Source: Carcharhinus longimanus (taxonomy: Eukaryota). Taken from it: a DNA stretch of 64,000 bases. Shown piece after piece: positions 5,921 to 58,450 of the stretch. The first letter of the stretch is position 1; every line of letters starts with the position of its first letter. The DNA is taken from the NCBI GenBank assembly GCA_030264375.1, contig JASCQW010000109.1, forward strand, positions 69,601,110 to 69,665,109. The letters run 5' to 3'. The position numbers and the translations under genes were made by a program. The notes beneath the pieces are model-generated. The model worked only from the letters and a program-made list of their open reading frames with translations. It made no database searches and was not told the DNA's origin.

Positions 5921-6110
5921 ATTTTTGACTGTACAACCAAAAATGCACAATCAACGCAATGATCTTTCGAGACATCCTAGCTTTAAGAAATGCTCAAAAA
6001 CCTGATTGGATGTCTGTGACCATTTTTCCATCCACCAATCAAAAGCTGCAATGTGCCTGGTGATCGAGGGCCCCCTTTCCTTCCCAAGCACCATTGCGCA
6101 GTTGCAGTCA
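5921..6110 (+). promoter_or_regulatory. Conserved promoter cassette of V1
   Basis: TTTTTGACTGTACAAC, GCTTTAAG 5980, ATTGG 6005, CCAAT 6035, GATC 6062..CCCCCT. Function inferred from conservation across paralogs. Confidence 0.8.
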
Positions 6111-6341
6111 CAGTTCATTGTGAAAGCTGGGACCGCGGCTGCGTTTTAAGAGCTTTTGCGCTTTAAACCAGTGTGATGATTCGCATCAATAAGGAGATCG
6201 ACAAAGAAATAATGTCAAGATTTTAAATCGCACAAGTGTTTGGGTGAAATCTGCGACTTCGATCAGGGATCTTATATTTATTCGAATGAATTATCCAACC
6301 GAGTTGTGGCGCTGAAATCATTGGGATGCTTTGTGCTGGAA

Positions 6342-8798
6342 ATGAGATATTATCAACCACACTGGCTGTTAAAATGGTCATTGTTGCACTGTGGATTGTG
6401 CTTCTGGGATCTGATTTCTTGTCAGATTCGCTATTCGATTCCAGAAGAGCTGCAACTGGGCGCCTTTGTTGGGAATATCGCAGATGATTTGGGTTTAAAT
6501 GTGCAGGAGCTCGCGGCTCGCAGTTTCCGGATCGTTCCCGGGCCCAGGAAACAGTATTTCGACCTAAATTTGAACAATGGTATTTTATCTGTGAAGGAAT
6601 ATATAGATAGAGAACAGCTGTGTGGGTCGAGCGAAACGTGTGCTGTATCTTTGGAAACTGTGATCGAAAAGCCTTTCAGTCTCTACGATATTGAAGTGGA
6701 AATTCTCGACGTAAATGATAACGCACCGATTTTTCCAAATAAACAATTCCGCATTGAAATCTTCGAAGGGGCCTCACCGGGAACTCGCTACGCCCTTCAG
6801 CGCGCCCACGACCCAGACGTAGGAACCAACTCCCTCCAGTCGTATCAGCTGGATGCCAATCCGTACTTCACTTTAAATGTTGAGAGTCGAAATGGGAATG
6901 ACGACATGCCTGTGTTACTGCTAAAAACGCCACTTGATAGAGAAAAGATATCCAGTCACAGGTTAGTGTTGATCGCCAAAGACGGAGGGGTCCCGGAACG
7001 ATCCGGAAGTGCCGAGATAATAATCAGCGTAAAAGATGCAAATGATAACACTCCTGTCTTCTCGCAATCAGTTTACAACATCAGTCTTTTAGAAAACGCA
7101 CCCAAAGGAGCATTGGTAATAAAGTTAAATGCTACTGATTTGGATGCCGGTCCAAATGGGGAAATTCTGTACTCTTTTAGTAACCATGCTTCTGGTAGAG
7201 TCCGTGAGTTGTTCAGTCTGGATTCTAAAACTGGTGAAATCAGAATCAGGGGCAATTTAAACTATGAGATCAACAAGTTTTTCGAGATTAATGTGCAAGC
7301 AATGGACAAGGGACCTTATGCAGTCCCTGCTTATTGTCATGTGCTGCTACATATTGTGGATATCAATGATAACGCCCCAGAGGTGACTGTTTCTACGTCG
7401 TTCAGTCCAGTTAGCGAAGATTCAGTGTCCGGGACAGTTGTGGCTCTAATCAGTGCAACAGACAAAGATTCAGGAGAAAATGGGCAGGTAAAATGTAAAG
7501 TCGCAGAAAACGTTCCATTTCAACTGGATTCATCGTCCAAGAAGTACTTAACATTGCGTACAAAACAAGGACTTGATCGGGAAAATATCTCCAGATATGA
7601 AGTCACCGTTGTGTGCAGTGATTCAGGATCTCCTTCTCTCACCTCACAGAAAGTCATCCTGGTGGAGGTTTCGGATATAAATGACAATGCGCCACGCTTT
7701 TCGCGACCTTTATACACAGCTTATGTGATGGAGAACAATGTTATTGGCACGTCTATATTATCAGTGGCCGCTTTTGATCCAGATTTAAACCAGAACTCTC
7801 GACTAAACTATTCCATAATACCGGCGCAAGTACAGGATGAGTCAGTATTTAGTTACGTCCATATCAAACCAGAAAAGGGAACTATAATTTCTCAAAGGTC
7901 TTTTGACTATGAAAGACTCAAAAGTTTTCAGTTTGAAGTTCAGGTTACGGACTCTGGAGCCCCGTCACTATCCAGCACTGTCGCAGTAGAGGTGGTAATC
8001 CTTGATCAGAATGATAATGCTCCTGTCATCGTACATCCATTACCAGAATATGGATCTACAGTAACAGAGATTGTATCTCGATTTGCAGAACCAGGCTATC
8101 TAGTCGCCAAGGTGTCGGCCACAGATGTCGACTCTGGTCAAAACGCACGCCTCACGTACGAGATTCATCAGGCTACTGAACCGGGACTTTTTACCATTTC
8201 ACCAGATACAGGTGAAATTTGGACCATCCGAGGCATTATGGGCAAAGATACCACGAGGCAAAGGTTGGTTATTGCTGCAAGAGACAGTGGTTCACCGCCA
8301 CTTTCAGCCACAATGACAATCATCTTATCACTGACAGAGGGTGATACAGAAATGCTTTCCGACGTGAGCAGTCTGTCTGAGGATTCTGGTTCTGTGAGTG
8401 ACATTAGTTTTTTCTTAGTTATATCGTTAGGGATAACCTCTTCAATTTTCCTCGTCGTTTTAATTGTTCTCGCCCTTAAGCTTAAAAATAACAGGAACAT
8501 GTTTGGTGCACAAAATGGTTTTCGAAACACTTGCTGTTGCCTCAGCGGACGAAATTCCATGAATGGAGTTCAAAAAGCTAGCAGAAATCTTGAAATAGTT
8601 CCGAACTATGTTGAAATATTTGGGGGCGATCCACTTTCCCAAAGTTTTCGCTATGACTCATGTTCATCTTCGGGCACAGCCAAGAGAGACGCCATATTTT
8701 CTAACAAGTATCAGTCATCCAGTTCCAAGAATAACGTCATGAGTGGAGATGAGGAAATACTACGAAATGTCAAGTGCAAAAATACCATAAATAGTGAG
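6342..8798 (+). CDS. Clustered protocadherin variable exon V1 (signal peptide, EC1-EC6, TM, variable cytoplasmic domain); splices to constant exons outside the window
   Basis: ORF 6240-8807. Start placed at the ATG shared by paralogs (6342, MRYYQPHWLLKW). QIRYSIPEE, DRE/DYE, DxNDNAP and AxDxG motifs repeat six times; TM FFLVISLGITSSIFLVVLIVLAL; donor GAG|GTGAGC after 8798 (819 codons, phase 0). Confidence 0.95.
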
Positions 8799-9444
8799 GT
8801 GAGCTGATCTTACTGCCTTAAATATTTGCATTTGTTTTGGCGTCCAGTCACGAATTCGCTATTCCCAATGACCACTGTGTTTTAATGACTCTGGCATCTT
8901 CTGAAGTTTTGTCATTCCAGGGTCCGACATGTTCTAGTTGATGGCAGAGGAATATCAGACATGGTTTATATCCCAAATCTAAATTTGTTTTTCTATTTCA
9001 GTTCAAAGTAATGACACTTGATCAAGATTCCGTCCAGTTTTAAACTGAGAATTCTGGGTGAAATGCTGAGGATCATTCACAAGTTGAAACTTTTAAGAGA
9101 AAGTAACAGCTGAGTTAATTAGCAGGTCAGAACCGTCCGGGATTCCCTTATCGTAGATTGTCATAGCAAAGTCTTAAGTAATCAAAATGTTTTACAACTC
9201 TTAAAACGCTGCACGAGAATTACTTAAAGTATTGATGCAGTTGCTTTGAATTTGGGAAGAGGAATGTGTCATGGATGCATGCATGACATTTAGAAGAAAG
9301 GAAACATTCAGAGTACTAAAATAAGCACAGTATTGTGGATACGATTGTCAGAAAAGATGCGATGAACGCGGGGACCAGTGAAAACCGTTCAGCACCTTGA
9401 ACCTGTGCATTCCTTCAGTTAAAACATTTCAGTTGGATATCTCA

Positions 9445-9648
9445 ACTCATAGAACTCATAGCACTCAAAGAACCCTACAGTGCAGAAAGGGGCCCTTCGG
9501 CCCATCGAGTCTGCACCGAACACAATCCCACCCAGGCCCTACCCCCCATACATCATACCCACTAATCCCTCTAACCTACGCATCCCTGGACACTAAGGGG
9601 CAAGGTCTTAGCATGGCCAATCAACCTAACCCGCACATCTTTGGACTT
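9445..9648 (-). mobile_element. HE1-type SINE 3' part inside a degenerate minus-strand CR1 (~9370-10240)
   Basis: ccctacagtgcagaaagg..ttcggcccatcgagtctgcaccg..agcatggccaatcaacctaacccgcacatctttggact, shared with other copies in the window. Confidence 0.7.
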
Positions 9649-15510: not shown

Positions 15511-15616
15511 GCATTTTTGATTGAACAACCATAAATGTGAAATCGGCGCAATGAGTTTTCTCGTCATTCCAGCTTTAAGAATTGCTCGCAACCTGATTGG
15601 TTGGATGTGATTCTGC
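15511..15616 (+). promoter_or_regulatory. Promoter cassette of V2 (3' half lost in gap 15617-15838)
   Basis: TTTTTGATTGAACAAC, GCTTTAAG 15572, ATTGG 15596, then Ns. Confidence 0.75.
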
Positions 15617-15899: not shown

Positions 15900-18344
15900 A
15901 TGATATATTATAAAAGATTTTGGCTGTTCAGATGTTCGCTATTATACTGCATGTGGGTTTTCGATCAAATATCTGGAGAGATTCGCTATTCAATTCCCGA
16001 AGAGCTAAAACTGGGGGCCTTTGTCGGGAATATCGCAAAGGATTTGGGTTTAGACCTGAAGGAGGTCAAAGTTCGCAGCTTTCGGATTGTGCCTGGTCAC
16101 AAAAAACAATATTTCGACGTAAATCTAAACAATGGTAATTTATTTGTAAAGGAAAAGATTGACAGAGAAAATCTCTGCGGGCCGAGTGCGGCATGCCTGT
16201 TATCTTTACAGACAGTGATAGAAAACCCTTTCACTCTGCACGATGTTGAAGTGGAGATTCTGGATATAAACGATAATGCTCCGACATTTCCAAAAAATCA
16301 ATTCCGCCTTGAAATCTCCGAGGCGGCCGCGCCAGGAACCCGGTATCCACTTGATTCTGCGCACGATCCAGATATAGGAACCAACTCCCTGCAGTCATAC
16401 CAGCTACTAACAGACGAGAATTTTGCCTTGAATGTTGAGAGTCGAAATGCGAATAAAGATATGCCAGTATTAGTTTTGAAAAGGTCACTGGATAGAGAAA
16501 AAGTATCACATCACAGGTTACGCTTGATTGCCAAAGACGCAGGAATCCCAGCGCGGTCAGGAACAGCTGAGATAATAATCAGTGTACAAGATGCGAACGA
16601 CAACGCGCCTGTGTTCACCAAACCAGTTTACAACGTCAACCTTTCCGAAAATATAACCAGAGGGACATTGGTGATCAAACTAAATGCCACTGACTTGGAT
16701 GATGGTTCGAACGGAGAGATTATTTATTCTTTCGCCAGTCACACGGCGGTTAGAGTGCGGGAGTTGTTCAGCCTGGATTCTAAAACTGCAGAAATCAGAA
16801 TCAGGGGCAATTTAAACCATGAGGAGAACAAGCTTTTCGAGATTAATGTGCAAGCAATGGACAAGGGACCGAATGCAGTCCCTGCTTATTGCCTTGTGCT
16901 GGTTCACGTTGTGGATATCAATGATAACGCCCCAGAGGTGATTGTTTCTACGTCGTTCAGTCCAGTTAGCGAAGATTCAGTGTCGGGGACGGTTGTGGCT
17001 CTAATCAGTGCAACAGACAAAGATTCAGGAGAAAATGGGCAGGTGGAATGCAAAGTCGCAGGAAATGTTCCCTTTCAGCTGGATTCATCATCTAAGAAGT
17101 ATTTGACATTGCGTACAAAACAGGAACTTGATCGGGAAAATGTCTCCAGATATGAAGTCACAGTTGTGTGCAGTGATTCAGGATCTCCTCCTCTCACCTC
17201 ACAGAAAGTCATCTTGGTGGAGGTTTCGGATAAAAATGATAATGCGCCACGCTTTTTGCGACCTTTATATACAGCTTATATGATGGAGAATAACGTTATT
17301 GGCATGTCTATATTATCAGTGACAGCTTTTGATCCAGATTTAAACCAGAACTCCCGACTAAACTATTCCATACAACCGACACAGGTACAGGATGAGTCAG
17401 TATTTAGTTACGTCCACATCCAATCAGAAAATGGAACTATAATTTCTCAAAGGTCTTTTGACTATGAAAGACTCAAAAGTTTTCAGTTTGAAATTCAGGT
17501 TACGGACTCTGGAGCCCCGTCACTATCCAGCACCGTCACAGTAGAGGTGGTAATCCTTGATCAGAATGATAATGCTCCTGTCATCGTACATCCATTACCA
17601 GAATATGGATCTACAGTAACAGAGGTGGTTTCTCAATTTGCAGAACCAGGCTATCTAGTTGCCAAGGTGTCGGCCACAGATGCCGACTCTGGTCAAAACG
17701 CACGCCTCACTTACGAGATTCGTCAGGCTACTGAACCGGGACTTTTTACCATTTCACCTGATACAGGTGAAATCTGGACCATCCGAGGCATTATGAGCAA
17801 AGATGCCACAAGGCAAAGGTTGGTTATTGCTGCAAAAGACAACGGTTCACCGTCGCTTTCAGCCACAATGACAATCACCTTATCACTGACAGAGGGTGAT
17901 AAAGAAATGCTTTCTGATATGAGCAGTTTGTCTCAAGATCCAGGTTCCTTTAATCATGTCAGCCTTTACTTGGTCATATCTTTAGGGGTAACACCTTCTG
18001 TTTTCCTCGTCGTTTTAATTATCCTCGCTATTAAGGTTCATAAAAACAGGAATCGTTTTGGAGTTCATATCGGTTACCTGGACACTTGTTGTTGTTTCGA
18101 AGACCTGAATGAAATCCAAAAAGCCAGCAGAAATCTTGAACTTGGTCCGAACTACGTCGAAGTTTTGGGGGGCGAGCAACTTTCTCAAAGCTTCCGCTAT
18201 GACACTTGTTCGACTTCAGGTACAGTTAAGAAGGATACAAAGTTCCTTGACATCTACGGATCATCTGTATGCAAAACAAACGTACCGAATGGAAATGACG
18301 AACTTTTCCAGAATGTAAACATCCGGACCTCCGGAAATAATGAG
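15900..18344 (+). CDS. Clustered protocadherin variable exon V2
   Basis: ORF 15891-18359; ATG 15900; six cadherin repeats, TM and cytoplasmic motif; donor GAG|GTGAGG after 18344 (815 codons). Confidence 0.95.
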
Positions 18345-22599: not shown

Positions 22600-23230
22600 C
22601 TCTTGAAAAGTCGCGACTGGATGCATTCCTTGTGAATGTTGCGATCGCTAATGATCGAGGTATTTCGCAACTGAATAGCATTTAAACAGTGAAACGTCTG
22701 TGATATATTGCACATCAATTCACTAATCCACTAAAAGAGTGCGAATTTGAGCTCCCTCATTCTTGGTGATACTTGATATATGTGTTGAGAATTTGCCAAC
22801 ATTTCAGTTCAATGTGAGAGTCGACCTGTTGGTTACGGAAGATAAGCTCCTCCCCCTTGAGAGCATGATTGGTCCAGATGTTGGCAGCAACTCCTTACCA
22901 GCTGCTTCTCCTGGAATATTTCATCCCAGACAAACAGGCCAAAAGTAGCGTTGGAATGTTATCTATCTTTACGCTAGACAACGCCTTGGATCAAGTAAAG
23001 TAATCAGCGCAAAACGTAGCCGGACTCGACAATGATAGTGATGTGGTTGAAAGACATTAGGTTGTCTCGTAGATATCTGACAGCTAGGTGTGAATCGCAA
23101 TCTAGGGTGCAAAGGACAAGGTGTTTATATTTTATCAATTAGCTTATAATGCCGGTTCATTGGAAAAGAAGTGCAACCGAGCTCTGGCCATCAAACTAAT
23201 GGCTTCAACAACGGTTCCAACGGAAAGACG
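22600..23230 (+). pseudogene. Highly decayed cPcdh variable exon relic (traces of EC1-EC3)
   Basis: ORF pieces VILDICVENLPTF...LPLESMIGPDVGSNSL (cf. EILDVNDNAPTF...FPLESAHDPDVGSNSL) and FYQLAYNAGSLEKKCNRALAIKLMA followed by ggttccaacgga (cf. FSQSVYNISLLENAPKGALVIKLNA...GSNG), in collinear order. Confidence 0.7.
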
Positions 23231-24220: not shown

Positions 24221-24410
24221 CATTTTTGATTGAACAACCATAAATATGAATGTCACTCAATGATTTTCGAAGACATTACAGCTTTAAGAGCTAAGCAGAT
24301 GCCTGATTGGCTGGAGCTGATTAGACTCTATCCACCAATGATCAGCTGCAATTTGCCTGGCGATCCCGACTGTCCCCTTCCCTTCCGATCCAACATTGCG
24401 CAGAGGCAGT
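24221..24410 (+). promoter_or_regulatory. Promoter cassette of V3
   Basis: TTTTTGATTGAACAAC, GCTTTAAG 24281, ATTGG 24306, CCAAT 24335, GATC 24362..CCCCT. Confidence 0.8.
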
Positions 24411-24640: not shown

Positions 24641-27091
24641 ATGAGATATTCTAAACGACACTGGCTGTTAAAATGGTCACTGTTGTACTGTGCATTCTCC
24701 TTCTGGGACCTCACTTCTTGCCAGATTCATTATTCCATTCCTGAAGGTCTGCAACTGGGCGCCTTTGTTGGGAATATCGCAAAGGATTTGGATTTAGACC
24801 TGAAGGAGCTCGGAGTTCGCAGTTTTCGGATTATGCCTGGTCCGACAAAACAATATGTCGACGTAAATTTGAACGACGGTAATTTATTTGTGAACAAAGA
24901 GATTGACCGAGAAGAGCTGTGTGGGTCGAGTGCAAAGTGTGTCTTGTCTTTAGAAACGGTGATCGAAAACCCTTTCAGTCTTTACGATGTCGAAGTGGAG
25001 ATTCTGGATGTAAATGATAACACGCCGACATTTCCACAAGCTCAGTTCCGCCTGGAAATCTCCGAAGTGGCGACACCGGGGACACGCTATCCACTTGAGT
25101 GCGCTCACGACCCGGACGTAGGAACCAACACGCTGCAATCTTATCAGCTATCTGCAAACGAATATTTCTCTTTAAATGTTGAAAGCCAAAATGGAAATGA
25201 AGACCTGCCGGTGCTAGTTTTGGAAAGACCACTGGANNNNNNNNNNNNNNNNNNTCACAGATTAGTGCTGATTGCCAAAGACGGCGGGGTCCCTGTGCGA
25301 TCCGGAACTGCAGAAATATTAATCGTTGCCCAAGATGTCAATGATAATGCTCCTGTCTTTTCCCAGACAGTTTATGAGGTCAGTCTCTTGGAAAGCACGC
25401 CCACAGGAACACTGGTGATAAAATTAAATGCCACTGATGCAGACGATGGTTCCAATGGAGAAATAGTGTACTCATTCAGTCGCCATACCTCTGCAAAAGT
25501 CCAGGATTTTTTTACTGTGGATTCCAAAACTGGTGAAATCAGAGTAGGAAGAAATTTAAATTATGAAGAAAACAGCCTTTTTGATATCAATGTACAAGCA
25601 ATGGACAAGGGATCGGGCTCAATACCATCTTATTGTCATATATTAGTTCAGATTGTGGATGTAAATGACAATGCACCGGAGGTGACGATAGCTACACTGT
25701 TCAGTCCAGTTCCTGAGAACTCTATTCCCGGAACAGTTGTAGCTCTGATCAGTGCAACAGACAAAGATTCAGGAGAAAATGGGCGGGTAGAATGTCAAGT
25801 CGCAGAAAGCTTTCCCTTTCAACTGGATACATCCTCCAAGAAGTACTTAACATTGCGTACAAAACAGGGACTTGATCGGGAAAATGTCTCCAGGTATGAA
25901 GTCACAGTTGTGTGCAGTGATTCAGGATCTCCTCCTCTCACTTCACAGAAAGTCATCCGAGTGGAGATTTCGGATATAAATGACAACGCACCACGCTTTT
26001 CGCGATCTTTATATACAGCTTATGCAATGGAGAACAATGTTATTGGAACGTCTATATTTTCAGTGACAGCTTTTGATCCAGATTTAAACCACAACTCTCT
26101 ACTAAACTACTCCATACAAGCGACCCGAGTGCAGGATGAGTCAATATTTAGTTACGTCCACATCCAGTCAGAAAAGGGAACCATATTTTCTCAAAAATCT
26201 TTTGACTACGAAAGACTGAAAAGTTTTCAGGTGCAAGTACAGGTTAGGGACTGTGGAATCCCATCGCTCTCCAGTAATGTCACTGTCGAGATAGTTATCC
26301 TTGATCAGAATGACAATGCTCCTGTCATCGTGCATCCATTGTCTGACTATGGGTCGACAGTATCAGAGACTGTATCTCGTTTCGCAGATCCAGGCTACCT
26401 GGTTGCTAAAATATCGGCCACAGATGCCGACTCTGGTCAGAATTCACGCCTCTCTTACCAGATTCTGCAAAGCACAGACCATGGACTTTTTACCATTTCA
26501 CCTGATACAGGTGAAATCTGGACAATCCGAGGCATTAGGAGCAAAGATGTTTCAAAACAAATGTTGGTAGTCGCTGCAAAAGATAACGGTTCACCACCAC
26601 TTTCCGCTACAATGACAATCATCTTATCACTGGCAGAGGGTGATCGGGAAATGATTTCTGATGCGAGCAGTTTATCTGAAGATCCTAATTCCTTTACTGA
26701 CGTTAGCCTTTACATAGTCGTAACGTTAGGGATAACGTCATCTTTCTTTCTTGTCGTTTTAATTATACTGGCCGTCAAGGTACATAGAAACAGAATCCAG
26801 TTTTCTGCTCAGAATGATTGCCTGGCCACGTGTTGTTGTTTCCTACCACGAACTTCCCTGAATGGAATTCAGAAAGCCAGCAGAAATATTGAAATAGTTC
26901 CAAACTATGTAGAAGTATTTGGGGGCGACCCGCTTTCACAAAGGTTCCGGTATGAGACCTATTCAACTTCACGCACGGCCAAGAGACAGACGACATCGTC
27001 TAACATGCAAAATTCAGGCAAGATTCCTCTCACGGATGGAAATGAAGAACTTATCCAGAATTCAAACTACAACAGCACTTTACAGTGTGAG
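24641..27091 (+). CDS. Clustered protocadherin variable exon V3
   Basis: ORF 24620-27118; ATG 24641; in-frame 18-N gap at 25237-25254 over the EC2 DRE motif; donor GAG|GTGAGG after 27091. Confidence 0.93.
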
Positions 27092-32665: not shown

Positions 32666-33324
32666 AAATTCCAAAAAGTAATTGGACTGTGCGTTCTCAG
32701 GATGTTTACATCAGGTAGAAGTAGCTTTTTACAATTGCACTAAGATCGTTGTATCTTAAAGAGAGTAAATAAACTGGATCATAGGAATGTACTCAACATT
32801 GTCATGTGCTGAGTTTCGGCTTGAAAAATAGACACCCAGTTAATTTTTAATATGTGTCGTGAATTCAATGATTCAATCGGGACACAGCAGTATGGGAACT
32901 CACAAATTCCGAAATGCAAGCATTTTTGGCCGAGTGAAGGGAATAAGTGATATATTTTAGCACACTCGTATGATTGGCTACTTACATCCAATCAACATAG
33001 GCTAGATTCAAATGCATGACCACCGTATGAAAAAAAACTGTGTACTAACAAATTATACCACCCAACCTCTCCGGGATTTGAATTCCATTAGTCATACATT
33101 AAGTCAAGCATAAATTACAAGGAACAAGACTACACGAAAATTACTGAATCGTAAAAGAACAAGTAAGCAACTTAAAACTTAACATGACTCCCTGCACAGT
33201 CGCTCGGTTACACATCCATTCGGAACGGTGATTCTGGCGTGCACACTTTAAAGACCTTTAATTAAACCTGTTTTCGCAAAAAAATAAACAATTGTCAAAA
33301 AATGATAAATTAAACAGTCATTTC

Positions 33325-33515
33325 GATTTTCAATTGAACAACTATAATTGCAAATATGCTGCAAGTAATAAGACGTCGTCGCTTTAAAAACTCAATAGTA
33401 TTCTTATTGGGTGAATACGACTGTTCGCCTGGCAGCCAATCAGAGGCTAAAATACGATTGGTGATCCGGACAATCCCCTCCCATCCTCCATCTCCTCACA
33501 TTAGACCAGTGTGCA
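33325..33515 (+). promoter_or_regulatory. Promoter cassette of V4
   Basis: TTTTCAATTGAACAAC, GCTTTAAA 33381, ATTGG 33406, CCAAT 33436, GATC 33463..CCCCT. Confidence 0.8.
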
Positions 33516-33721
33516 CTGGATTGCGAGCTGCAACGTTTCACCGGTAATTTTGGCCGAAATGAGACAACCTGACCAAGTAATCTCAGCGAATCTCAAAAGA
33601 CACAGAGAACCTGCCGTACAATCAGTTCCTTCACGTTAAGGAAAGATATCCACTTAATTGTTACAGCGATTTTAAACGGTGCCGACTCGCCCTGAAATCT
33701 TTGGAATGATTCAGCCTGGAA

Positions 33722-40219: not shown

Positions 40220-40420
40220 AATTTTTAACTGTGCAACAATAAATAGAAATATTTTGTTCTGGTTTTATACATCCTAGCTTTAAGAAATCAGGACTTTCTG
40301 GTTGGCTCAGTTTTAGCTTGCCCTTGTTCACCAATCAGAAGCTGAGATGTGAATGGGGATCCGGACTGCCCCCTTCACAAACCAGACACCATCACGTCCG
40401 ATCAGACGCAGTGTAAAATG
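40220..40420 (+). promoter_or_regulatory. Promoter cassette of V5
   Basis: TTTTTAACTGTGCAAC, GCTTTAAG 40277, GTTGG 40301, CCAAT 40331, GATC 40358 CGGACTGCCCCCT. Confidence 0.8.
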
Positions 40421-40633: not shown

Positions 40634-43223
40634 ATGAGATATAAAATATATTGGTTGCTAAAATGTCAACTGCTATATTGCGTATTCTCCTCGTGGAATC
40701 TAGTTTCTGCGCAGATTCGTTATTCGATTCCTGAAGAATTGCAACTGGGCGCCTTTGTTGGGAATATCGCAGATGATTTGGGTTTAGATATAAAGCAGCT
40801 CTCCGCTCGTCGTTTGCAGATTGCGTCTGGGCCGGGGAAACAATATGTGGACGTACATTTGAACAATGGCATTTTATTTGTCAAGGAAAGGATTGACAGA
40901 GAACCGCTTTGTGGACCCACCCAGATTTGTGTGTTATCCTTGGATGTCATGCTTGAAAATCCCATCAATCTATACCAGGTTGATGTGGAGATTCTCGATG
41001 TTAATGACAATGCTCCCCGTTTTGCAAATAGACAATTCCGCTTGGAAATCTCAGAGCTTTCTTCACCGGGAACGCGCTTTCCCCTCGAGTCTGCGCACGA
41101 TCCGGACATTGGGACAAATTCCTTGCAAACCTATGAGCTCCTTCCGAACGGTCATTTTATTCTCGATATACAAACGCGCAGCGGAAAAGGAAAATTACCA
41201 GTATTGGTGTTGGAAAGGTCCTTGGATCGAGAAACAGAGTCAACTTACATTTTAACTCTAATAGCCAAAGATGGCGGGACCCCCATTAGGTCAGATACAG
41301 TTAATGTTACAATCATAGTAAAGGATGCAAATGACAATGCCCCTGTTTTTTCTCAGTCAGTTTATAGAGCGAGACTGTTGGAAACCGCACCCAGAGGAAC
41401 CCTGATAATCACATTAAATGCCACTGACTTGGACGATGGTCCCAATGGAGACATAGTTTACTCTTTCAGCAGTCATAGTTCCGCTAGAGTTCGAGAGCTG
41501 TTCGGTGTGGATCCCAAAACCGGTCAGATTAGAGTGAAAGGCAATTTGGACTATGAGGAAAGCAGTGACTTTGAGATTAACATACAAGCAATGGACAAGG
41601 GTCCGTACGCAATGTCCGGACATTGTGACGTTGTGGTGGATATTATTGATGTGAATGATAACGCGCCTGAGGTGACTGTGAGGACTTTGTCCAGCACAGT
41701 TTCAGAAGATGCTCCACTTGGAACAGTGGTCGCTTTGTTCAGTGCAGCAGATAAAGATTCGGGGCAAAATGGGCAGGTGCAATGTCAAATTTCAAATCAG
41801 CTGCCCTTTAAACTAGATTCTTCCATGAAGAACTATTACAGACTGCTTCTTCAGCACCGACTGGATCGGGAAGGTAGCCCCAGGTATGACGTCACTATAA
41901 CATGCACGGATGGAGGAAATCCCCCTCTGGCATCCAAAAAAACCATTCGGGTAGAGGTTTCAGATATAAATGACAATGCCCCACGGTTTACCCAGACTGT
42001 GTACACAGCAAACGTGAAGGAGAATAATGCTATTGGGGCGTCCATATTCTCCGTCTCAGCCTTTGATCCAGATGTAGGACAAAACGCTCGTCTAAAATAT
42101 ACTGTACTGGAGACTCTAGTTCAGAATTCTTCAGTTTCCACTTCCGTTTCAATTAACTCGGAGACTGGGGTCATTATCGCTCAGAAATCTTTTGACTACG
42201 AACAATTGAAAAACTTTCAGGTCCAAGTTCAGGTCATGGACTCTGGGACCCCACCACTCGCCAGTAATATCTCAGTGAATGTTATTATCCTTNNNNNNNN
42301 NNNNNNNNNNNNNNNNNNNNNNNNNNNNNNNNNNNNNNNNNNNNNNNNNNNNNNNNNNNNNNNNNNNNNNNNNNNNNNNNNNNNNNNNNNNNTCAGTGAA
42401 TGTTATTATCCTTGATCAGAATGACAATGTTCCAGTGATCGTGCACCCATTAGCCGAGTATGGCTCAACGGTAACAGAGACAATATCCAGGTTTGCAGAA
42501 CCAGGCTACTTGGCTGCTAAGGTATCGGCCACTGATGCTGACGCCGGGGAGAATGCTCGCCTTTCTTATTCCATTTTTCAGGCTACCCAGCATAACCTCT
42601 TCACCATTTCACCAGACAATGGGGAGATTTGGACTGTCCGTCGCATTGAGAATAAAGATGCCTCTAAGCAAAGGTTGGTGATTATGGTAAAAGACAATGG
42701 AACACCATCACTTTCTGCCACAGTGACCATCATCTTATCTGTGGTAGGTAGTGATGCTGAATTGTTATCTGATGTGAGCAGTTTATCAGAACGCCCTGTT
42801 TTCACACCTGATCTGAGCCTGTCCTTAGTATTAACTTTAGGAATAATTTCAGCCATTTTTCTGGTAATTATGATTATTCTCGCTGTTAAAGTCCACCGAA
42901 ACAGAAATGGTTTGGGTACGCCATGCTGTTCCCTCGGCACCTGTTGCTGCTTTGAAACAAGACATTCTCTGAATGGAATTCAAAAGGCCAGTAGAAATCT
43001 TCAGATACCACCCAACTATGTCGAAGTATTCGGAGGTGATCCACTTTCCCAGAGTTTCCGCTACGAGTCATGTTCAACGTTGCAGTCAACAAAGAGAGAC
43101 TTCCTAACGGCAAACGCATGTGGGCTTTCTACAGCCAAGTACGCGCTACAGAATGCACCTATTGAGAAAGACAAGGCAGGGTTGACGAACTCTGAAAATT
43201 ACAACAACTTCACAAGTAATGAG
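40634..43223 (+). CDS. Clustered protocadherin variable exon V5, split by an assembly gap
   Basis: ORFs 40613-42415 and 42279-43385 join across the 100-N gap (42293-42392), which is flanked by a 21-bp duplicate. Removing gap and duplicate gives 823 continuous codons. Alternative in-frame ATG at 40625; donor GAG|GTGAGG after 43223. Confidence 0.88.
42293..42392. other. Assembly gap with 21-bp overlap inside V5
   Basis: TCAGTGAATGTTATTATCCTT at 42272-42292 and again at 42393-42413. Confidence 0.9.
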
Positions 43224-46909: not shown

Positions 46910-46914
46910 CCGTC

Positions 46915-48830: not shown

Positions 48831-49030
48831 ACTTTTTGATTGTGCAACGATAATTATATTGCCGGTTTGAAGCATTGCAGCTTTAAGAAACAGAGAGCAT
48901 TCTGATTCGTTGAATTTCACATTGCCTGTGTTCACCAATCAGAAGCTGATATGTGATTGGGGATCCGGACTGCCCCCTTCATAAACCAGACACCATCACG
49001 TACGACCAGACGCAGTGTAAAATGGAATAA
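48831..49030 (+). promoter_or_regulatory. Promoter cassette of V6
   Basis: TTTTTGATTGTGCAAC, GCTTTAAG 48880, ATTCG 48905, CCAAT 48935, GATC 48962; near-identical to V5 from the CCAAT box onward. Confidence 0.8.
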
Positions 49031-49242
49031 CGAGCAGCTCGGGAGGATTTGTGCAAGAATCCATTGGCAATTTTAGGCAGAATGCGAAGATTTAAATGAA
49101 GTCAGAGAGTGATTCGCAAAGCGGACAGGTATTTTTCGCATCGCAGATCCTCGGATTTGAAAAGGAACTCCCCAAAACACTGTTGAAAGGATATGAACAG
49201 TATAGTAGCGTACTGAGAAAATTGGGATGTTTTATGCTGGAA

Positions 49243-51711
49243 ATGAGATATAAAATACATTTGCTGATAAAATGCCAGCTATTGTATTGTGTGTTCTCCT
49301 CGTGGAATCCAGTGCTTGGGCAAACTCGTTATTCGATTCCTGAAGAACTCGAACAGGGCGCCTTTGTTGGGAATATTGCAGCCGATTTGGGTTTGGATAT
49401 AAAGCAGCTCTCGGCTCGTAGTTTGCAGGTTGCGTCTGGGCCTAACAAACAATATGTGGGCGTAAAATTAGACAATGGGATTTTATTTGTGAAGGAAAAG
49501 ATTGATAGAGAACAGCTTTGCGGGCCTACACTGAACTGTGTGTTATCCTTGGATATTACGCTTGAAAACCCCCTCAGTCTGTATCAATTTGAAGTGGAAA
49601 TCCTCGATGTAAATGACAATGCTCCCAGCTTTCCAAGGAGGCAGATCCGCCTCGAAATCTTAGAGATTGCTGCGCCTGGAGCGCGTTTTCCCCTTGACTC
49701 CGCGCACGATCCGGACATTGGAAACAACTCCCTACAAACGTACCAACTTCTTCCGAACGATTATTTCACTCTCGATGTACAAATACGGAGTGGAGAAGGG
49801 AAGTTACCGGTACTGGTGTTGCAGAGGCCCTTGGATAGGGAAACTATATCAACCCACAGTTTAACGCTGATAGCTAAGGATGGCGGGATCCCTGTAAGAT
49901 CAGGCACTGCTCAGGTCATAATCACAGTAAAAGATGTAAACGACAACGCGCCTATTTTCTCCCAGTCGGTTTACAAAGCCAGTGTGTTGGAAAATGCTCC
50001 AGTTGGTAGCCGAATAGTCACAGTAAATGCCACTGATTTAGACGATGGTTCAAATGGAGAGATAATGTACTCGTTCAGCAGTCACACATCTGCAATAGCC
50101 CGTGAATTATTTAGAGTGGATTCGAAAACTGGTGAAATCACAGTGAAAGGTAATTTGGACTATGAACAAAGAAATGTTTATGAGATTAACATACAAGCAT
50201 TAGACCTGGGTCCTTATGCAATGCCGGAGCACTGTGACGTTTTGGTTAATATTATTGATGTGAATGATAATGCACCCGAGGTGACGCTGAGGACTTTGTC
50301 TAGCACAGTTTCAGAAGACGCTCCAGTTGGAACTGTAGTCGCTCTGTTCAGTGCAGCAGATAAAGATTCGGGGCGAAATGGGCAGGTAAATTGCGAAATT
50401 TCAAAAAAACTCCCCCTCATATTAGATTCTTCATTGAAGGGCTATTACAGACTACTTATTCAGCATCGACTGGATCGGGAAAATACCTCCAAGTATGACG
50501 TTACTATCACATGCACAGATGCAGGAAATCCTCCTCTCACAACCAGGAAAACCATTCGAGTGGATGTTTCAGATGTAAATGACAATAGGCCTCAGTTCAC
50601 GCAGCGTTTCTACACAGCAAACGTTGTGGAGAATAATATTATCGGGAGTTCTGTATTGTCCGTCATAGCCGTTGACCCAGATATAGGATTAAACGCTCGA
50701 CTAAACTATTCTCTGCTGGAAACTCAAGTTCAGAACTCTTCGGTGGCCACTTACGTTTCTATTAACTCGGAGAGTGGTGTCATATATTCTCAGAGATCTT
50801 TTGACTATGAGCGATTAAAAAACTTTCAAGTTCAAGTTCAGGTCATGGACTCTGGAATTCCACCACTCGCCAGTAATGTCACAGTGAATGTTATTATCCT
50901 TGATCAGAATGATAATGTTCCAGTCATCGTGCACCCATTAGCCGACTATGGCTCAACAGTAACAGAGACAATATCCAGGTTTGCAGAACCAGGCTACTTG
51001 GTTGCTAAGGTATCGGCCATTGATGCTGACGCCGGGCAGAACGCTCGCCTTTCTTATTCCATTTTTCAGGCTACCCAGCATAACCTCTTTACTATTTCAC
51101 CAGACAATGGCGAGATTTGGACTATCCGTCGTATTGAGAATAAAGATGCCTCTCAGCAAAGGTTGGTGATTATGGTAAAAGACAATGGAACACCTTCTCT
51201 TTCTGCCACAGTGACCATCATCTTATCTGTGATTGGGAGTGATATGGAAACGTTTCCTGATGTGAGCAGCTTATCGGATGATCCTGGTCTCACAGCTGAT
51301 TTGAGTCATGCCCTAGTCATAGCCTTAGGTACAATTTCCATCATTTTCCTCATGATTTTAATTATCCTCGCCATTAAAGTTCACAACGGCAGAAATCCTT
51401 TAGGAAGTCAGCCCTGTTCTCTGGCTGTTTGCTGCTGCTTTGAAACAAGACATTCTCTGAATGGAATCCAAAAGGCCAGTAGAAATCTTCAGATACCACC
51501 CAACTATGTTGAGGTATTCGGGGGTGATCCACTTTCTCAGAGTTTCCGCTATGAGTCATGTTCAACATTGCAGTCAACAAAGAGAGATTTCATCACATCA
51601 AACACATGCAAATCATCTACAGGCAAGAATTATAACTGGAATAAACCAAACACGGATGAAAATCCAGAGCTGAAGAATTCAGAATATTATCCTAACTCTG
51701 TGAACAATGAG
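49243..51711 (+). CDS. Clustered protocadherin variable exon V6
   Basis: ORF 49096-51726; shared start at 49243 (in-frame ATG also at 49234); donor GAG|GTGAGA after 51711 (823 codons). Confidence 0.95.
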
Positions 51712-54214
51712 GTGAGACCCATCTAAATGAGGAGCTGATCCTGGCAGGTTTGGTTTGCATGTCAGATGTATTTATGCAAATTCAGCATATTTAAGTGAAG
51801 GGAAGAAGATGTATGTTCAATGTTTCATTCACAGTGTTCTGCAGTGTCTCCATTTACAGACTAACGCTCCGATTTGTCGTTATAATGTGGCATCACTCAG
51901 GAAGTGTTGTCAGTTCTATGGTTTATAGGTAAATACTGTACATTGCTCAGTTGGGTTTTACAAGTTTACAGAGGTCCACATGACGTTTAAGGGACATGGA
52001 AGGTTGGTTAAAATCGTTGGAAACATCAGCATTTCCCACAGTCTCTAAGCATTTGCATGTTAATTATATGTAGAGGGAGTTTGTCCGTCGCATATGTCTG
52101 CCCACGTGCAGAACTGTTTCTTCCACAGCAGAAAAGGAGAACAGATTACATAAACAGTAGTTACTTCTCCGTTGATCTTCTCACAGCCCCATGGCTGCAA
52201 GTTAATATTATTAGGATATTTCTCAGTTCCAGGTTAAAATGGGCAGGATAACTTTTCTTCTCATAAGTTACAGAAATACTGAGTTGAAGTCGATTCAGTA
52301 ATTAAGACTAGTTGTGTTGAATATTTATCTGTCAATAGAGAATCAGTAACTGCATCAGAGGTTAGCGAAAGGAGTTCTGTGCATAGGCATCAAAATGTAC
52401 CAAAACTCTTCTCTTTCTGGAGAGACTGCAACACCCACCTCTAGTCAGTCTTTCACACACCATCACATTCAAAATACAGTATGAGACAGGTAGCTGTAAT
52501 ATGCAGCTCTTGAAAGCAAAAATAGTAACCAACATTTTAGCCAATTATTCTAATCAGAATTGAAGCTCATATGAAAGGGCAAAAAGAGCAATGTGCCCAT
52601 GTATGTGCCAATCTTCCTTCCTGGGGTTGCATGGTAATCTACATGTCTCAATCCATTGAGTAACCTGGGCACAAATCGAATTAAAATAGGCAATCAATGC
52701 ACATTGTAGGTTTGAGTTAATCGTGACACGGGGTCGTAATAAAATGCTAAATGCAATGTGTTAGTATTATCCTAAATTCTATAAATACAACAACTTGGGA
52801 GCTAATGACAACTAATGTAACATCCGTGTTTTGAAAGATTTAAAACAATGTTTATACTGACATAATAGTTTTTCAAATATTCCAATGAGGAAATACCTGA
52901 GACCCTTGTCCTCTTCATTCTGTTCACTGGAAAATTATGCAGGAGGAGTAAATAGTCCACAAACTGTTCTCAAGATAATTGACGTTTGACAGATACCTCG
53001 TCGTGCATCTAGTATGCATCAGTGACGAGGCATGTGCCTATTAAAACAATGTTTTCTCAAGTTTTAAAAAGAAATGATGATGAGGGAATGTCATGTGAGG
53101 CCCGGCGAAGTGCAACTTGTTGGCTGACAAGAATTCACAAGTGCCAGCGTTTCTGTCATGCCATCTTCCATCAATATCGCCTGGGGAAAATATTCCGAAC
53201 ACTTGGTGAGATAATGGTGGGTCGGTTTCCTGTCAGCAAAGCTCAACTTCTCTCCTTGGAGGGCTTATCATCTCCAGCAATTGAGATGTGCCTTAACCCT
53301 CTCAAGGAAGCCTGGCTGGCCAACCAGAAAAGAATGGAGGCCAGAGCCATCCTGAGACATGTGTGAACTGCTATGTTGCACATATGTACACTTGGCACAT
53401 GAATTCGTCCTTGAAGGGTCATCTCCAAAATAAAGGATGTAATTTACTTATTTTATGAGTAAAGGATATATTTAGCTACTGCCATGGTTCTGAGTCTCCC
53501 CATGTGTGCCCATAGTCAGCTGAGGGCTGTTCATCTTCAAGTATTGCAAATATAACTGTACGTTGAAGAACCACTGAGAAGAATTGTGTTAATTCCATAT
53601 TCCTTCTGCCAGCTGCATGCCCCCATGCAGAGGTTAGAGACATGCTTGGCAAGCTGACAAGAGTTGATTGTGTACTACATTGTGGAGGAGGGACTGGATT
53701 GTTGCTAGAGCAGCTGGCGCACCATTCACCTTGGGAGAGCTGCCACTATGCACATTGAGATGCTCAATGTAGCTCTCCCTTCTAACATTCTGATGTATGC
53801 TGTGGAGCATGCAACGCGATTCTTTTACAGGTATCATTATTCAGGCAAAATTGCGTTTAAACCCCGACACAAAAATCTTCCCCCAGGAGCTGGTGGCTTG
53901 CAAACTGAGTACTCTCTTGATATCAACTCATGGATAGATCCAGGCAGCTCACAATCAAGGGATCATTCATGCCAAAACCAAGCTTCTTTTCCTTGTTATT
54001 GTCACATCTGGAAATTCCTGGAATGTGATCTTGTCATGTCCTCTTGCGCACCAGAAGTCTTTGGTGAATTGTGAGTGCCATCGGAACTGGGGTGATTAAT
54101 CAAAACCCAAGACAAAAGAATAATAGATTTGCTTAATTTGGTGGCTCACCAGAGTATTTCAAGAGCAATTCGGGAAGGGGAGCAAATTCTAACATTCCCA
54201 GTGGCACTCCCATT

Positions 54215-54850: not shown

Positions 54851-56229
54851 CACGTCATGTTGTTTGACTTTCAAAAGTTTTATTAAATTTTAATTAATGT
54901 ATACTTATTGAACCCTTCAAAACTGCTGCTGCAAAAGCTTATAGTCAATGATGTAATCAGTCTAAAATGAGCAAGTAAGAGAGTAATATCATTGTTCTTA
55001 ACAATGCAAATGAAAGCAGGAACTGTGAGTACCACAAAACATTTCTTGAAGTGAAGCATTGTACAAACCAAGGCGAAATTATTTGAGAGGCAATGGCCCA
55101 TAATTTCCTCAGAGTGCTATTACCCAGTGGCTTCCTAATCGTGATGGTTTTATTCGCATTGAAATTCCAAAACTCCTGTCATTCCCAAAGTTCTCACTCA
55201 GGCTCATTGAGACAGGAGCAGCGAAATGCGCCTCTGACTGCGTCAATGGGGAGTAACTGGGGTGGGGAGAAGAATGGAATGGATTGGGTCGAGTTGGGTT
55301 GGGCTTTTCTTCAGGGAAGTTGGTTGTGTAATGATATTATCACTGGACTAGTAATCATGAGACCCAGTGTTTCGGGACCCAGGTTTGAATGTGAACGTGA
55401 CAGATGGTGAAATTTGAATTCAACACAAAAACCCTTGGCTAGCGGGGAAGGGATCTTATTGGACTGAAAGGAGAGGTCGGGCCAGATTCGGAGTGGTAAG
55501 AGAAACAGAACAGATCGGCAGAATGGAGGTGGGGAATCGAGTCGGAAAGGGGGGATCATATGGGGTCGTGTTTGTGCCTGAGTGACTCTGCATTTTTTGG
55601 ATTATTGTTCTAGAATTAGAGGTGTTTTCTTTCCTCTTCACACTCTTTCAGACGAATTAACAAGGTGATTTACAACTCTTTTGTTGGATGGTTCTAAGCC
55701 CTCTCAAGTATCAAGGAGAAATTTAGCACTTGTGGACAATTGCCGGGTAAAATCTTATGTGGGAAAGACCTAGAGGGATTTCGGAGCACATTCCTAGGTT
55801 ACTCCCAAAATGTGACGCTGAATAAACAAAACGTTTTGGGCCACTAATCTAGGCTTGGGCCTCTGGACGATTTCAAACTTTACAAATGGAATAAAACTTG
55901 CGTTGTAAACGGAGAAGGGGGCAATGACAGACATCAAGAACACATAACGACAGGCTGATGGAATGGGCAGACACGATGGATGATATTTAAAGCAGAGAAG
56001 TGGGAGGTGATACGTTTTAATAGGAAGAATGATGAATTGCACTGCAAATTAATTGATAAACTTCAAAAGAAGGTACTAGCTCAAAGGATCCTGGAGGTAT
56101 ATGTGCACAGATCGTTGAAGGTGGCAGGAAATGTTGAGAAAGTGAGTTAAAAAAGTACGTGGGTGTAGAAATAACGTGGGAAAGTTCAAAAGTAAGGCAT
56201 ATTGCTGTAAAATAGACAGGCCGTCAAAA

Positions 56230-57000
56230 TAATTCAGCTTCACTCATCAAGACAGACGCATGAATGCCAAATTTGAAAGAGAACAATTTTGTTGCATGAT
56301 TACTCGGTACTAATTAGTTGGCAAGCATATTTGGTTATTATGGAGAAGGCAACAGGGAAAATGAATCCCACAAGCCTCGAAATATATCGCCATTCCTTTG
56401 CACTTCTTGGGTCCAAATTCTGGAATGTACTACCTAACGGAACTGTGGGTTAACCCACAGCACGTGGACTGCAGCGTTTTAAGAAGGCAGTTCACCACCA
56501 CCTCCTTTAGGGCAACTGGAATTGGCAATAAAATCTAGCCAGCCAGCGATGCCCAAATTCCACAAATGAATACAAAGTGTTGTTTAAATCCAGTTTGGGC
56601 AGATAACTCAGATTGTTTGGAGCATTGCCGTGGGATATACATCATGGTAAATGAACAATCTCAAATATGAAAAGAATTACAGTAACGAACACTTGAATGT
56701 TAACAATCAAGCTCGTCATTTAGTTCACTTAAACTTGCCACAAGCTACCTGTATTCATGGATAGGGGCACGTCCTATGCAAACAGAAATAAAATGCACAG
56801 ACATTGCTGTTTTTTAAATTAAACATAATAATGAGAATAGCCTCCCTGTGCGTTCTCCATGGCAGAGTGTCAACCAATCAGAATGCAACCAAACAACAGT
56901 TTTCATATGCAGTATTAACTGTTGTTACCTTTGACATTTTGTACATTTGGATCTATCCTGAAGAGGGAACAAAACTTCGACAGCATATCTCATTTTCAGT
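56230..57000. mobile_element. Inverted pair of Penelope-like terminal repeats with an internal LINE tail (56387-56575)
   Basis: 56230-56360 (-) and 56830-57000 (+) both resemble 790-880 (tcatgc..attgtt..CTGnnGA). Confidence 0.5.
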
Positions 57001-57059
57001 ACACTCAAGAATTGTTAAATCAAAACCTAAGTAGCTTATGGTGAACATGTATAAAATGC

Positions 57060-57500
57060 CAGCTGAACCTTAGCTAAAATACTGTGTCTAATTCTGAACA
57101 GCACACTTCATGAAGGATGCGAAAGATTTGGGGCAAATGAAGAATAGAATATGAGAACGTTTCCAGAGATCAAAAACTTCTCTTATGTGGATATCGTAGC
57201 AATACTTGTGGTGCTTTCAATAAAGCAGAGAAGATTGAGAAGAGATTTGATGGAAGCATAGACAACAGAAGCAAATGCCTTTCTGTGCAACCAATTGGTC
57301 GGATCTACAATGTGCTTCCAAAGGTTGTGAGGAAGGCAGATTTAATCATAGCTTTCAGAGTGAATTGGATAATTATCTGAAGATAAAAATATTGTGGCTT
57401 GATATAAAACTGCTAGGAAGTCGGACAAGATGGTTAGTTCTTGCAGAGAGCCAATATGCACACAATGGATGGAATGGCCTCCTTGTACGTTTTAACAATG
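57060..57500 (+). mobile_element. Degenerate CR1 3' end
   Basis: gcagagaagattgagaagagatttgatggaag..gaattggataattatctgaag..gaatggcctccttgt. Confidence 0.65.
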
Positions 57501-58245
57501 TTTTCATCTCAATTATATCAGGAAACATACCAATTAAATTATGTACTTTGTTTAGATTTTAAGTGGACGTTTGTTGATAGGCCACAAGTGATGGGCTATG
57601 GGGTTTCCAGCTTATACGATAAATAGATTGTAAATTGGCTTCGTACCAGCAGGCAGGTGTATTAGATTACTATCTCCAAGTGTATTTTCCAGCATCGTTT
57701 TTGGCTTCCTACAGCTCACAGATATTGTAATTCAAATAGATTATTCGTGTTAATACATTTTTCAGTGACAAAGAACTATGTGGTAGTTACAGGTGAAAAA
57801 AGTAAAATTACTTTTAGAGTGACATATGCTCATTTCAAACAATGTGTTAAGGCATAAAATGTTCTCGTGGGTTAAATATATGTATAGTGAATTACTTTTT
57901 GTGAGAGTACGGGCTGCAAGAAAATGCACCCACTGCCAAGGCTGAGAAAACAAATAAAAATAACTATAGAAACGAACATATGTTATGCCCTGAAATACTC
58001 CAATCATTTTGAAAGTGTTAGTAATGAGGCAAAGGCCAAGGGCCTGGAAGGCAGTGAATTTAAATTCATGGTCATTAATAGTGACAATGGAATTGAATGT
58101 TTGGACATAATGAGTTCCGCAGATTCCTTTCCATCTTATGTCTTTATTTATTTTCAGGACATTCGCCACATGTGATCTTACATTATTCATTCATTCAGTA
58201 GAAAATGTTTACGCATAACAAATAATGGTGAAAATAGCTTAATAA

Positions 58246-58450
58246 AATTTTAATTGTGCAACAAAAATTGTAGGTCTGCAACGCTACTTTCAGTCCTTGC
58301 TTTAAGAAACGAGTAACATTGCAATTGGTTGAATTTCTTTGTGGCTCTGTTCACCAATCAGAAGCGGAGATGTGAATGGGGATCCGGACGGCCCCCTTTA
58401 CTACCCAGCCACCATCACGCACGATCAGAGGCAGTGTAAAATTGGATAGC
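58246..58450 (+). promoter_or_regulatory. Promoter cassette of V7
   Basis: TTTTAATTGTGCAAC, GCTTTAAG 58299, ATTGG 58324, CCAAT 58354, GATC 58381. Confidence 0.8.

Follow-up and report, generated by a model that had tools for sequence, protein, structure and literature searches.

In a shark protocadherin array, probably of the nu type, each of the seven variable exons is preceded by a homologous cassette of short motifs, which is very probably a promoter element maintained by selection. On balance, we favor reading it as a proximal promoter, copied along with every Pcdh-nu variable exon and retained by purifying selection, with NF-Y at its center. In the window, by which we mean the whole 64-kb stretch analyzed, the cassettes lie 245-420 bp 5′ of the exons, in agreement with the initial annotation, which had placed one about 250-420 bp before each exon. 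Each cassette comprises a first motif, the sequence GCTTTAAG or a variant of it, an inverted CCAAT (ATTGG, box A), a forward CCAAT (box B), a third, inverted CCAAT where present (box C), then GATC, CCCCT and a candidate-start CAGT.

A profile made from the cassette copies yields exactly eight strong matches in the window, all on the plus strand, and the next-best match has an E value of 0.21; by this search there is one cassette per exon at a like distance and none elsewhere. The eighth copy (V0, at about 2779-2925), absent from the initial annotation, precedes a decayed exon whose remnant matches V4 at 39% by tblastn and other exons at 65-71% by blastn. An N gap cuts off the V2 cassette, so that six complete copies remain among the intact genes (Table 1). 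The cassettes span about 155-190 bp and are centered on the CCAAT boxes, approximately 300 bp from the ATG; in six genes the interval between box B and the ATG is 283-308 bp. The full composite had no occurrence in 200 shuffles.

Table 1. Cassettes and variable exons in the window.
Feature	Position	Strand	Details
Cassette V0	2779..2925	+	GCTTTAAG and box A intact; box B is CCAAA; A-to-B 20 instead of 30
Decayed variable-exon remnant V0, EC1 region	3203..3620 (end approximate)	+	no long ORF
Cassette V1	5922..6108	+	first motif 5922, GCTTTAAG 5980, box A 6005, box B 6035, GATC 6062, CCCCT 6072, CAGT 6105
Variable exon V1 ORF, 821 aa	6342..8807	+	GAG/GTGAG donor near end
Cassette V2, 5′ part only	15514..15616	+	first motif, GCTTTAAG 15572, box A 15596; remainder in N gap
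Variable exon V2 ORF, 819 aa	15900..18359	+	
Cassette V3	24223..24410	+	GCTTTAAG 24281, box A 24306, box B 24335, GATC 24362, CCCCT 24374
Variable exon V3 ORF, 825 aa	24641..27118	+	
Cassette V4	33327..33510	+	GCTTTAAA 33381, box A 33406, box B 33436, third inverted CCAAT 33457, GATC 33463, CCCCT 33475
Variable exon V4 ORF, 828 aa	33722..36208	+	
Cassette V5	40222..40412	+	GCTTTAAG 40277, box A broken (GTTGG 40301), box B 40331, GATC 40358, CCCCT 40370
Variable exon V5	40634..43223	+	N gap inside
Cassette V6	48833..49016	+	GCTTTAAG 48880, box A broken (ATTCG 48905), box B 48935, third inverted CCAAT 48956, GATC 48962, CCCCT 48974
Variable exon V6 ORF	49243..51726	+	start is the signal-peptide ATG; listed ORF begins upstream, 49096
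Cassette V7	58247..58435	+	GCTTTAAG 58299, box A 58324, box B 58354, GATC 58381, CCCCT 58393
Variable exon V7 ORF, 824 aa	58637..61111	+	

The exons themselves form a tandem array of seven, each of about 820 codons (~2.4 kb), with cadherin Pfam families in their homologs and an AG/GTGAG splice donor at every exon end (7/7); no constant exon was identified in the 64-kb window. The V4 protein is 85% identical to a white shark protein and 65-66% identical to elephant shark Pcdh-nu8/9/13/15/17. With V4 as the sole query, the best 120 matches include five named nu and none named epsilon or mu, and the protein tree was built without epsilon, mu or delta rows. Two of the three paralog clades in this tree include ray or skate proteins, and those clades are therefore older than the shark-ray split. 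Among the same 120 matches, N-terminal extensions match clearly no further than about 84 bp upstream of the ATG and never reach the cassette. Metagenome contigs were also scanned for vertebrate protocadherin loci; of 120 stretches, one held a distant locus (26% identity), which was left out of the analysis.

Between the three clades the cassette motifs are 69-95% identical, whereas identity is mostly 0.3-0.5 at four-fold sites outside EC1 and 0.35 in the spacer between boxes A and B, a contrast that argues against recent duplication or conversion of the whole block. Because the paralogs arose before sharks and rays diverged and their synonymous sites are almost saturated, the motifs are very probably under selection. 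The proposal that spacers diverge while their length is held is correct as to sequence for the A-B spacer and for the one from GCTTTAAG to A (0.45), but it fails downstream of CCAAT, where identity is about 0.70; the CCAAT-GATC stretch is thus conserved in sequence and is not a free spacer. This constraint extends 45 bp beyond box B, which is more than NF-Y base contacts would explain, and another protein with a long footprint may therefore be the main reader. The leaders, which hold 2-6 ATGs when counted from CAGT, are CpG-rich (observed/expected 1.04-1.55 versus 0.46-0.71 at 3-4 kb downstream, 6/6 genes), as expected for promoter-proximal DNA.

Individual modules are kept to different degrees. 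GCTTTAA is the most invariant (8/8). Box B is intact in all six intact genes with sequence at this position and is broken in the pseudogene copy V0 alone, the box A pentamer is intact in five of seven intact genes, and box C is intact in V4 and V6 only (2/6 complete copies). The initial annotation had assigned the literal series GCTTTAAG..ATTGG..CCAAT..GATC to all complete copies, but only three of the six carry it, because V4 has GCTTTAAA, V5 has GTTGG and V6 has ATTCG. Similarly, its first motif is found literally in six of the seven intact genes and fails in the seventh, and a fixed distance from this motif to GCTTTAAG is contradicted by values of 52, 52, 52, 48, 49, 41 and 46 in V1-V7. The spacings of the core were described accurately: GCTTTAA and box A are 24-25 bp apart in all eight copies, box A to CCAAT is 30 bp in five of the six complete copies and 29 in V3, and CCAAT to GATC is 27 bp in all six. 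Measured between their AT steps, the separation of boxes A and B is 33 bp in five copies, whereas V3 has 32 bp and V0 has 23 bp, and the distances from box B to CAGT are 70, 72, 71, 78, 78 and 78.

The signs that core length is rigid are no more than suggestive, with P about 0.01-0.2 depending on the test, and we judge it close to an even question, leaning slightly to the negative, whether the spacing is needed for activity. A somewhat less probable view is that the motifs are selected and the spacing is not, in which case the similar lengths would reflect homology and the rarity of indels in short spacers. Consistent with this view, core lengths did shift, by 1 bp in V2, V3 and V5, by 2 bp in V1 and by 10 bp in V0. 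The alignment, in which V2 and V5 were left out of the gap tests for their N gaps (leaving 5/7 genes), shows two gap runs, one of 1 bp and one of 2 bp, across the 99 core columns and 13-20 in about 285 flanking columns, and comparing these rates over all gaps gives P 0.05-0.21. Likewise, a simulation based on approximately 36-60 free bases, with 1.7-2.8 events expected at the most cautious rate, puts the probability of no event over 1 bp at 0.09-0.24. However, no gap of at least 3 bp falls in the core versus 11-14 outside it (P 0.016-0.035, at a threshold picked post hoc with the data already seen), a sliding-window estimate of core length constraint gives 0.012-0.069, and the lengths of the adjoining first-motif spacer differ by up to 11 bp. 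Spacer-length variance was also compared by an F test (P below 0.0002), which was set aside, since it assumes independent and normal changes; the gap-count tests are much weaker than this one.

Position, conservation and the CpG richness of the 5′ ends give good support to a CCAAT-box promoter before each variable exon, with NF-Y as the probable factor. To this extent the NF-Y promoter proposed in the initial annotation stands, but a fixed two-NF-Y complex would not be obligatory, because the upstream CCAAT box (A) is broken in two of the seven intact genes. The stereospecific complex of the initial annotation depends on a length constraint that is no more than suggestive. We propose that NF-Y, which is likely to bind box B, would occupy this forward box in every case, and that a second NF-Y could optionally occupy the inverted box A on the same helical face, the 33 bp between AT steps being about three turns. 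Further factors would recognize three other parts: GCTTTAA, the TG..CAA motif upstream, and the unbroken block of 45 bp between box B and CCCCT, which probably includes a G-rich zinc-finger site. Together, the bound factors would open the promoter and set the start roughly 70-100 bp downstream of box B, for which the conserved CAGT at B+70 to B+78 is a candidate; its variable distance from box B and the ATGs in the leaders count against this reading. For comparison, NF-Y sites in mouse ES cells are reported at a median of 94 bp upstream of start sites (PMC6624317). The cassette would in this way render every exon competent to fire, whereas the choice among exons would come from elsewhere (methylation, enhancer contact).

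The NF-Y flank consensus RRCCAATSR fits box B in V4 only (1/6) and box A in V0, V2 and V3, and is not enriched across the window (15 matches versus 10.65 expected). The DECA-CCAAT composite (GAnnGAC, 11 bp, CCAAT) has three one-mismatch matches where 4.7 are expected, none of them at boxes A, B or C. CHR hexamers (TTTGAA/TTTAAA type) are represented in the cassettes by TTTAAA in V4 only, which falls short of a CDE/CHR element; TTTAAG and CTTAAA do not occur in the main text of PMC4176359, whose list of ten variants stands in a figure. A 19-letter ZNF143/Staf consensus is matched with 2-3 mismatches just past CCCCT in V1, V4 and V7 (21 matches in the window versus 15.5 expected), with the mismatches in V1 and V7 falling in the central AT. 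A scan for the NRSE found three weak matches in the window and none in the cassettes.

One conceivable but unlikely alternative is a weak CTCF site concealed in the cassette, which would simply be the shark version of the conserved sequence element (CSE); fixed spacing would then reflect one long zinc-finger footprint. The CTCF sites of mouse cPcdh promoters are all described as having weak core motifs (PMC11217373), and a failed consensus scan would thus be compatible with CTCF binding. Moreover, in human alpha6, where CTCF is the binder, linkers of +5, +10 and +15 bp between two adjacent elements are reported to have all abolished activity (PMC3333863), and the elephant shark cluster is stated to contain a CGCT element (PMC2926608). 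In the cassettes, the CCCCT module of V5-V7 can be read as the right half of a minus-strand CTCF core (11/15 letters), but in V3 and V4 this half-site has decayed, and its orientation is opposite to that of mammalian promoter sites. The consensus CTCF core, allowing up to two mismatches, has 24 matches in the window (26.6 expected) and none in cassettes, whose best scores of 10-11/15 equal the background of random 220-bp stretches. From the first motif to CCCCT, CGCT occurs only in V4 (+) and V7 (-), V2 being incomplete, and at unrelated positions, so that no CGCT position is shared; the A-B spacer, furthermore, has diverged as much as neutral sites.

The initial annotation also had the cassette used for promoter choice, which gains no support here. 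An element common to all exons cannot alone tell them apart, although it can license transcription, and a direct role in choice is improbable. We consider it more doubtful still that a stereospecific multi-factor complex itself effects stochastic choice, as the initial annotation would have it. Core spacing does hold within 1-2 bp across old paralogs, boxes A and B share a helical face even in V0 after its 10-bp loss, and stereo-aligned NF-Y composites have been described (10.64898/2026.02.16.706105); however, V5 and V6 have a broken box A, no more than 2/7 copies retain an intact third box, every exon has the cassette, and in mammals choice is attributed to methylation and to looping by CTCF/cohesin (PMC7811963). 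Least likely of all is a bidirectional or antisense-facing cassette, in which the minus-strand CCAAT of box A followed by the AT-rich, TATA-like GCTTTAAG would drive upstream antisense RNA, for although boxes A and C are CCAAT on the minus strand, the invariant GCTTTAA keeps its 24-25 bp from A, and antisense transcription is reported to participate in mammalian alpha promoter choice (PMC7811963), the mammalian antisense promoter sits within the exon rather than upstream of it, and CCAAT and the AT-rich element stand closer together than is usual for a CCAAT/TATA pair.

CTCF-guided stochastic gene choice has its textbook example in the promoters of clustered protocadherins, and if shark nu promoters were without CTCF sites, this mechanism would not be universal among jawed vertebrates. 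We regard it as unlikely that CTCF sites are wholly absent from these promoters and that the promoters rest on a phased, NF-Y-centered cassette. If this were true, stochastic exon choice in cartilaginous fishes would not depend on CTCF loops anchored at promoters, and in bony vertebrates the CTCF-bound CSE would be either a later addition to an older CCAAT promoter or a lineage-specific survival beside it. Mammalian gamma CSEs may close with a similar ACCAA directly past the CGCT box, in which case box B would be the shared ancestral part. If CTCF does bind, the cassette would be an ordinary lineage variant of the known element, seen at higher resolution. The exact bases are supplied by the cassette, namely box B, box A, GCTTTAA, the B-to-CCCCT block and the natural variants V0, V5 and V6.

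The cassette resembles NF-Y promoters in its CCAAT pentamers, their predicted position 70-100 bp upstream of the start and the adjoining G-rich site. Unlike in multi-CCAAT promoters, its boxes are inverted, back to back, and the flanks of box B are mostly off-consensus; cell-cycle multi-CCAAT arrays, spaced at 31-33 bp, are direct repeats. The MHC class II SXY module is also a fixed-spacing cassette with an inverted CCAAT common to paralogous tandem promoters, but this likeness is an analogy only, as no RFX X box is evident by eye in the shark cassette. The elephant shark cluster belongs to the same lineage and probably to the same nu subcluster, and its description by Yu et al. 2008 reportedly mentions a CCAAT box. 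A conserved promoter element in that cluster is described, second-hand, as CGCT (PMC2926608), whereas CGCT is not conserved in the cassettes studied here. Like the CSE (CGCT box) of mammals, frog and zebrafish, the cassette is a conserved paralogous element that occurs once per variable exon, a few hundred bases 5′ of it, and strict spacing of adjacent parts has been demonstrated for human alpha6 (PMC3333863). The CSE, a CTCF-binding element of about 22 bp, sits some 200 bp from the ATG, whereas the shark cassette is far longer, more distant and without a shared CGCT or CTCF core. Variants of the CSE are nevertheless known: frog and zebrafish alpha are without CGCT, and frog gamma2 15-36 have another motif. 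Although it has neither a conserved CGCT box nor a recognizable CTCF core, the cassette is best read as the shark counterpart of this known conserved promoter element.

The window is part of a shark clustered-protocadherin (cPcdh) array, and the subcluster is probably nu. Seven large open exons of about 820 codons each (V1-V7; an N gap divides V5) code for protocadherin ectodomains, and all seven are closed by an AG/GTGAG donor. Only V4 was used as a query; it shares 85% identity with a protein from white shark and 82% with one from a catshark. Its best 120 matches include five elephant shark Pcdh-nu proteins, at 65-66% identity, and none named epsilon or mu.

Each variable exon (7/7) is preceded by a cassette consisting, in order, of a first motif, a GCTTTAA module, an inverted ATTGG (box A), a forward CCAAT (box B), GATC and CCCCT. 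The initial annotation had described this arrangement but missed an eighth copy, at the decayed exon V0. A profile search returned eight strong matches in 64 kb, all on the plus strand and located before V1-V7 and V0, although seven were expected by construction because the profile was trained on seven copies (V2 excluded). The runner-up reached only E 0.21, nothing else in 64 kb scores, and the composite pattern occurred 0 times in 200 shuffles. Most of the annotated distances hold: GCTTTAA to A is 24-25 in 8/8 copies, A to B is 30, 29 (V3), 30, 30, 30 and 30 in the complete copies (20 in V0), and B to GATC is 27 in 6/6 complete copies (28 in V0). GATC to CCCCT is 10 or 12, and 283-308 bp separate box B from the ATG (with an N run counted in for V5). 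The annotated rigid spacing does not extend to the first motif, whose distance varies from 41 to 52 bp, and the literal pattern fits three of the six complete copies but not V4 (GCTTTAAA), V5 (GTTGG) or V6 (ATTCG). Box B reads CCAAT in 6/6 intact genes that have sequence there; the pseudogene copy V0 has CCAAA instead. Box A is intact in 5/7 intact genes. A third, inverted CCAAT at B+21, formed by the bases immediately 5′ of GATC, is present in V4 and V6 and missing from the other five copies with sequence. A conserved CAGT is located at B+70 to B+78.

Features located in the window
Feature	Position (nt)	Observation
Decayed exon remnant V0	near 3200-3620	One of two decayed exon remnants
V0 with its cassette	2779-3620	Most of cassette retained despite badly degraded exon; GCTTTAAG and box A intact, box B broken, A-B spacer shortened by 10 bp
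Second decayed exon fragment	22769-23207	EC1-EC2 boundary to EC2; no upstream cassette match
Pre-ATG block (examples)	6308-6341, 33688-33721, 58603-58636	Conserved block in the ~35 bp directly 5′ of ATG, all seven exons
EC1 stretch of 12 codons	6462-6497	Plus matching codons of V2-V7
ATTGG..CCAAT inverted pair	32971-32992	15 bp apart, ~450 bp 5′ of V4 box B; its ATTGG matches NF-Y flank consensus
Open frame 5′ of V6	49096-49242	49 codons 5′ of signal-peptide ATG
CTCF-core matches, V1-V3	8095-8106, 17650-17661, 26394-26405	Minus strand, two mismatches, same place in each exon

Judged from its sequence, the cassette is a real, old and selected promoter element. Between the clades V1-V3, V4 and V5-V7, agreement is 0.69-0.95 in the motifs and mostly 0.3-0.5 at four-fold synonymous sites outside EC1. 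The annotated view that free spacers keep their length while diverging applies between A and B (0.35) but not 3′ of box B, where 70% of positions are identical between clades and invariant columns span ~45 bp, from B to CCCCT. The neutral divergence of the A-B spacer speaks against recent duplication or whole-block conversion. In a rapidly built tree, with SH-aLRT as its sole support measure and 36 proteins hand-picked from the 120 matches (three removed since the EC1 start was not located), V4 groups with proteins from skate and sawshark, V5-V7 group with ones from ray and skate, and V1-V3 are joined by one from a sevengill shark. On these groupings, the paralogs are older than the shark-ray split, which dates to roughly 270-300 million years ago. 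Separately, comparisons of the 12-codon EC1 stretch between clades find an unchanged codon in 91% of cases, versus 52% on average (permutation P 0.023); the stretch may be a conversion tract or a regulatory element within the exon.

Rigid spacing of the core, as originally proposed, is suggested by our tests but unproven. Five genes were compared, V0 being left aside as a pseudogene and V2 and V5 for N gaps. Across 99 columns, the core contains two gap runs (1 and 2 bp), and the flanks (279-290 columns) contain 13-20, depending on alignment setting. The difference in gap rate gives P 0.05-0.21, or P 0.016-0.035 for gaps of at least 3 bp, a threshold picked post hoc; both tests count motif bases, which would resist gaps regardless. 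Sliding windows give P 0.012-0.069, and simulating only the free bases, at the most cautious of the rates, yields P 0.09-0.24. An F test on spacing, whose result was far stronger, was set aside as its assumptions fail. Phasing is favored by the distance separating the AT steps of the two boxes: 33 bp in five copies, 32 bp in V3 and 23 bp in V0, where it reflects one event in a dead gene.

Most likely, the cassette serves as each exon's proximal promoter. The leaders have a CpG observed/expected ratio of 1.04-1.55, versus 0.46-0.71 at 3-4 kb downstream (6/6 genes), and in mouse ES cells NF-Y sites are located at a median of 94 bp 5′ of start sites (PMC6624317). NF-Y would occupy box B, with an optional second NF-Y on box A, and other factors would read the remaining modules. 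A cassette common to all exons could confer competence on each, and exon choice would then require some further asymmetry; the role in promoter choice originally proposed is, like rigid spacing, unproven. The separate pre-ATG block carries an out-of-frame upstream ATG at -16 (in V7 at -15, with a quick stop), and four other sharks/rays have predicted proteins in which it is translated as an N-terminal extension; the block could act as a conserved damper of translation or as an additional promoter element.

Box B matches the flank consensus of NF-Y in one gene only, and the cassettes conform to neither the DECA-CCAAT nor the CHR definition. A stretch directly 3′ of CCCCT weakly resembles a Staf/ZNF143 site, and CTTTAAR is an orphan conserved mammalian promoter motif. 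Alternatively, CTCF may bind the cassette through a weak site: the CCCCT module in V5-V7 looks like half a reverse CTCF core, mouse cPcdh promoter CTCF sites are all weak (PMC11217373), and strict spacing accompanied CTCF binding at human alpha6 (PMC3333863). However, the CTCF core consensus has 24 matches in the window versus 26.6 expected, with none in any cassette, and the best score per cassette is at background level. The recurrent CTCF-core matches of V1-V3 lie inside a conserved coding motif and are probably a by-product of protein sequence.

Among open papers, we found none relevant that links CCAAT or NF-Y to clustered protocadherins; one hit proved to be a primer and a reference. An elephant shark promoter element, recorded second-hand (PMC2926608), may already cover part of the shark cassette. 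The cassettes share no position of CGCT, the box of the conserved sequence elements (CSEs) of cPcdh promoters, and their apparent lack of a CTCF site merits testing. The cassette is a variant of already known cPcdh promoter elements: like the CSEs of mammals, frog and zebrafish, which PMC4978886 describes as paralogous elements 5′ of cPcdh variable exons with CGCT-less variants among them, it is a paralogous element repeated before each variable exon.
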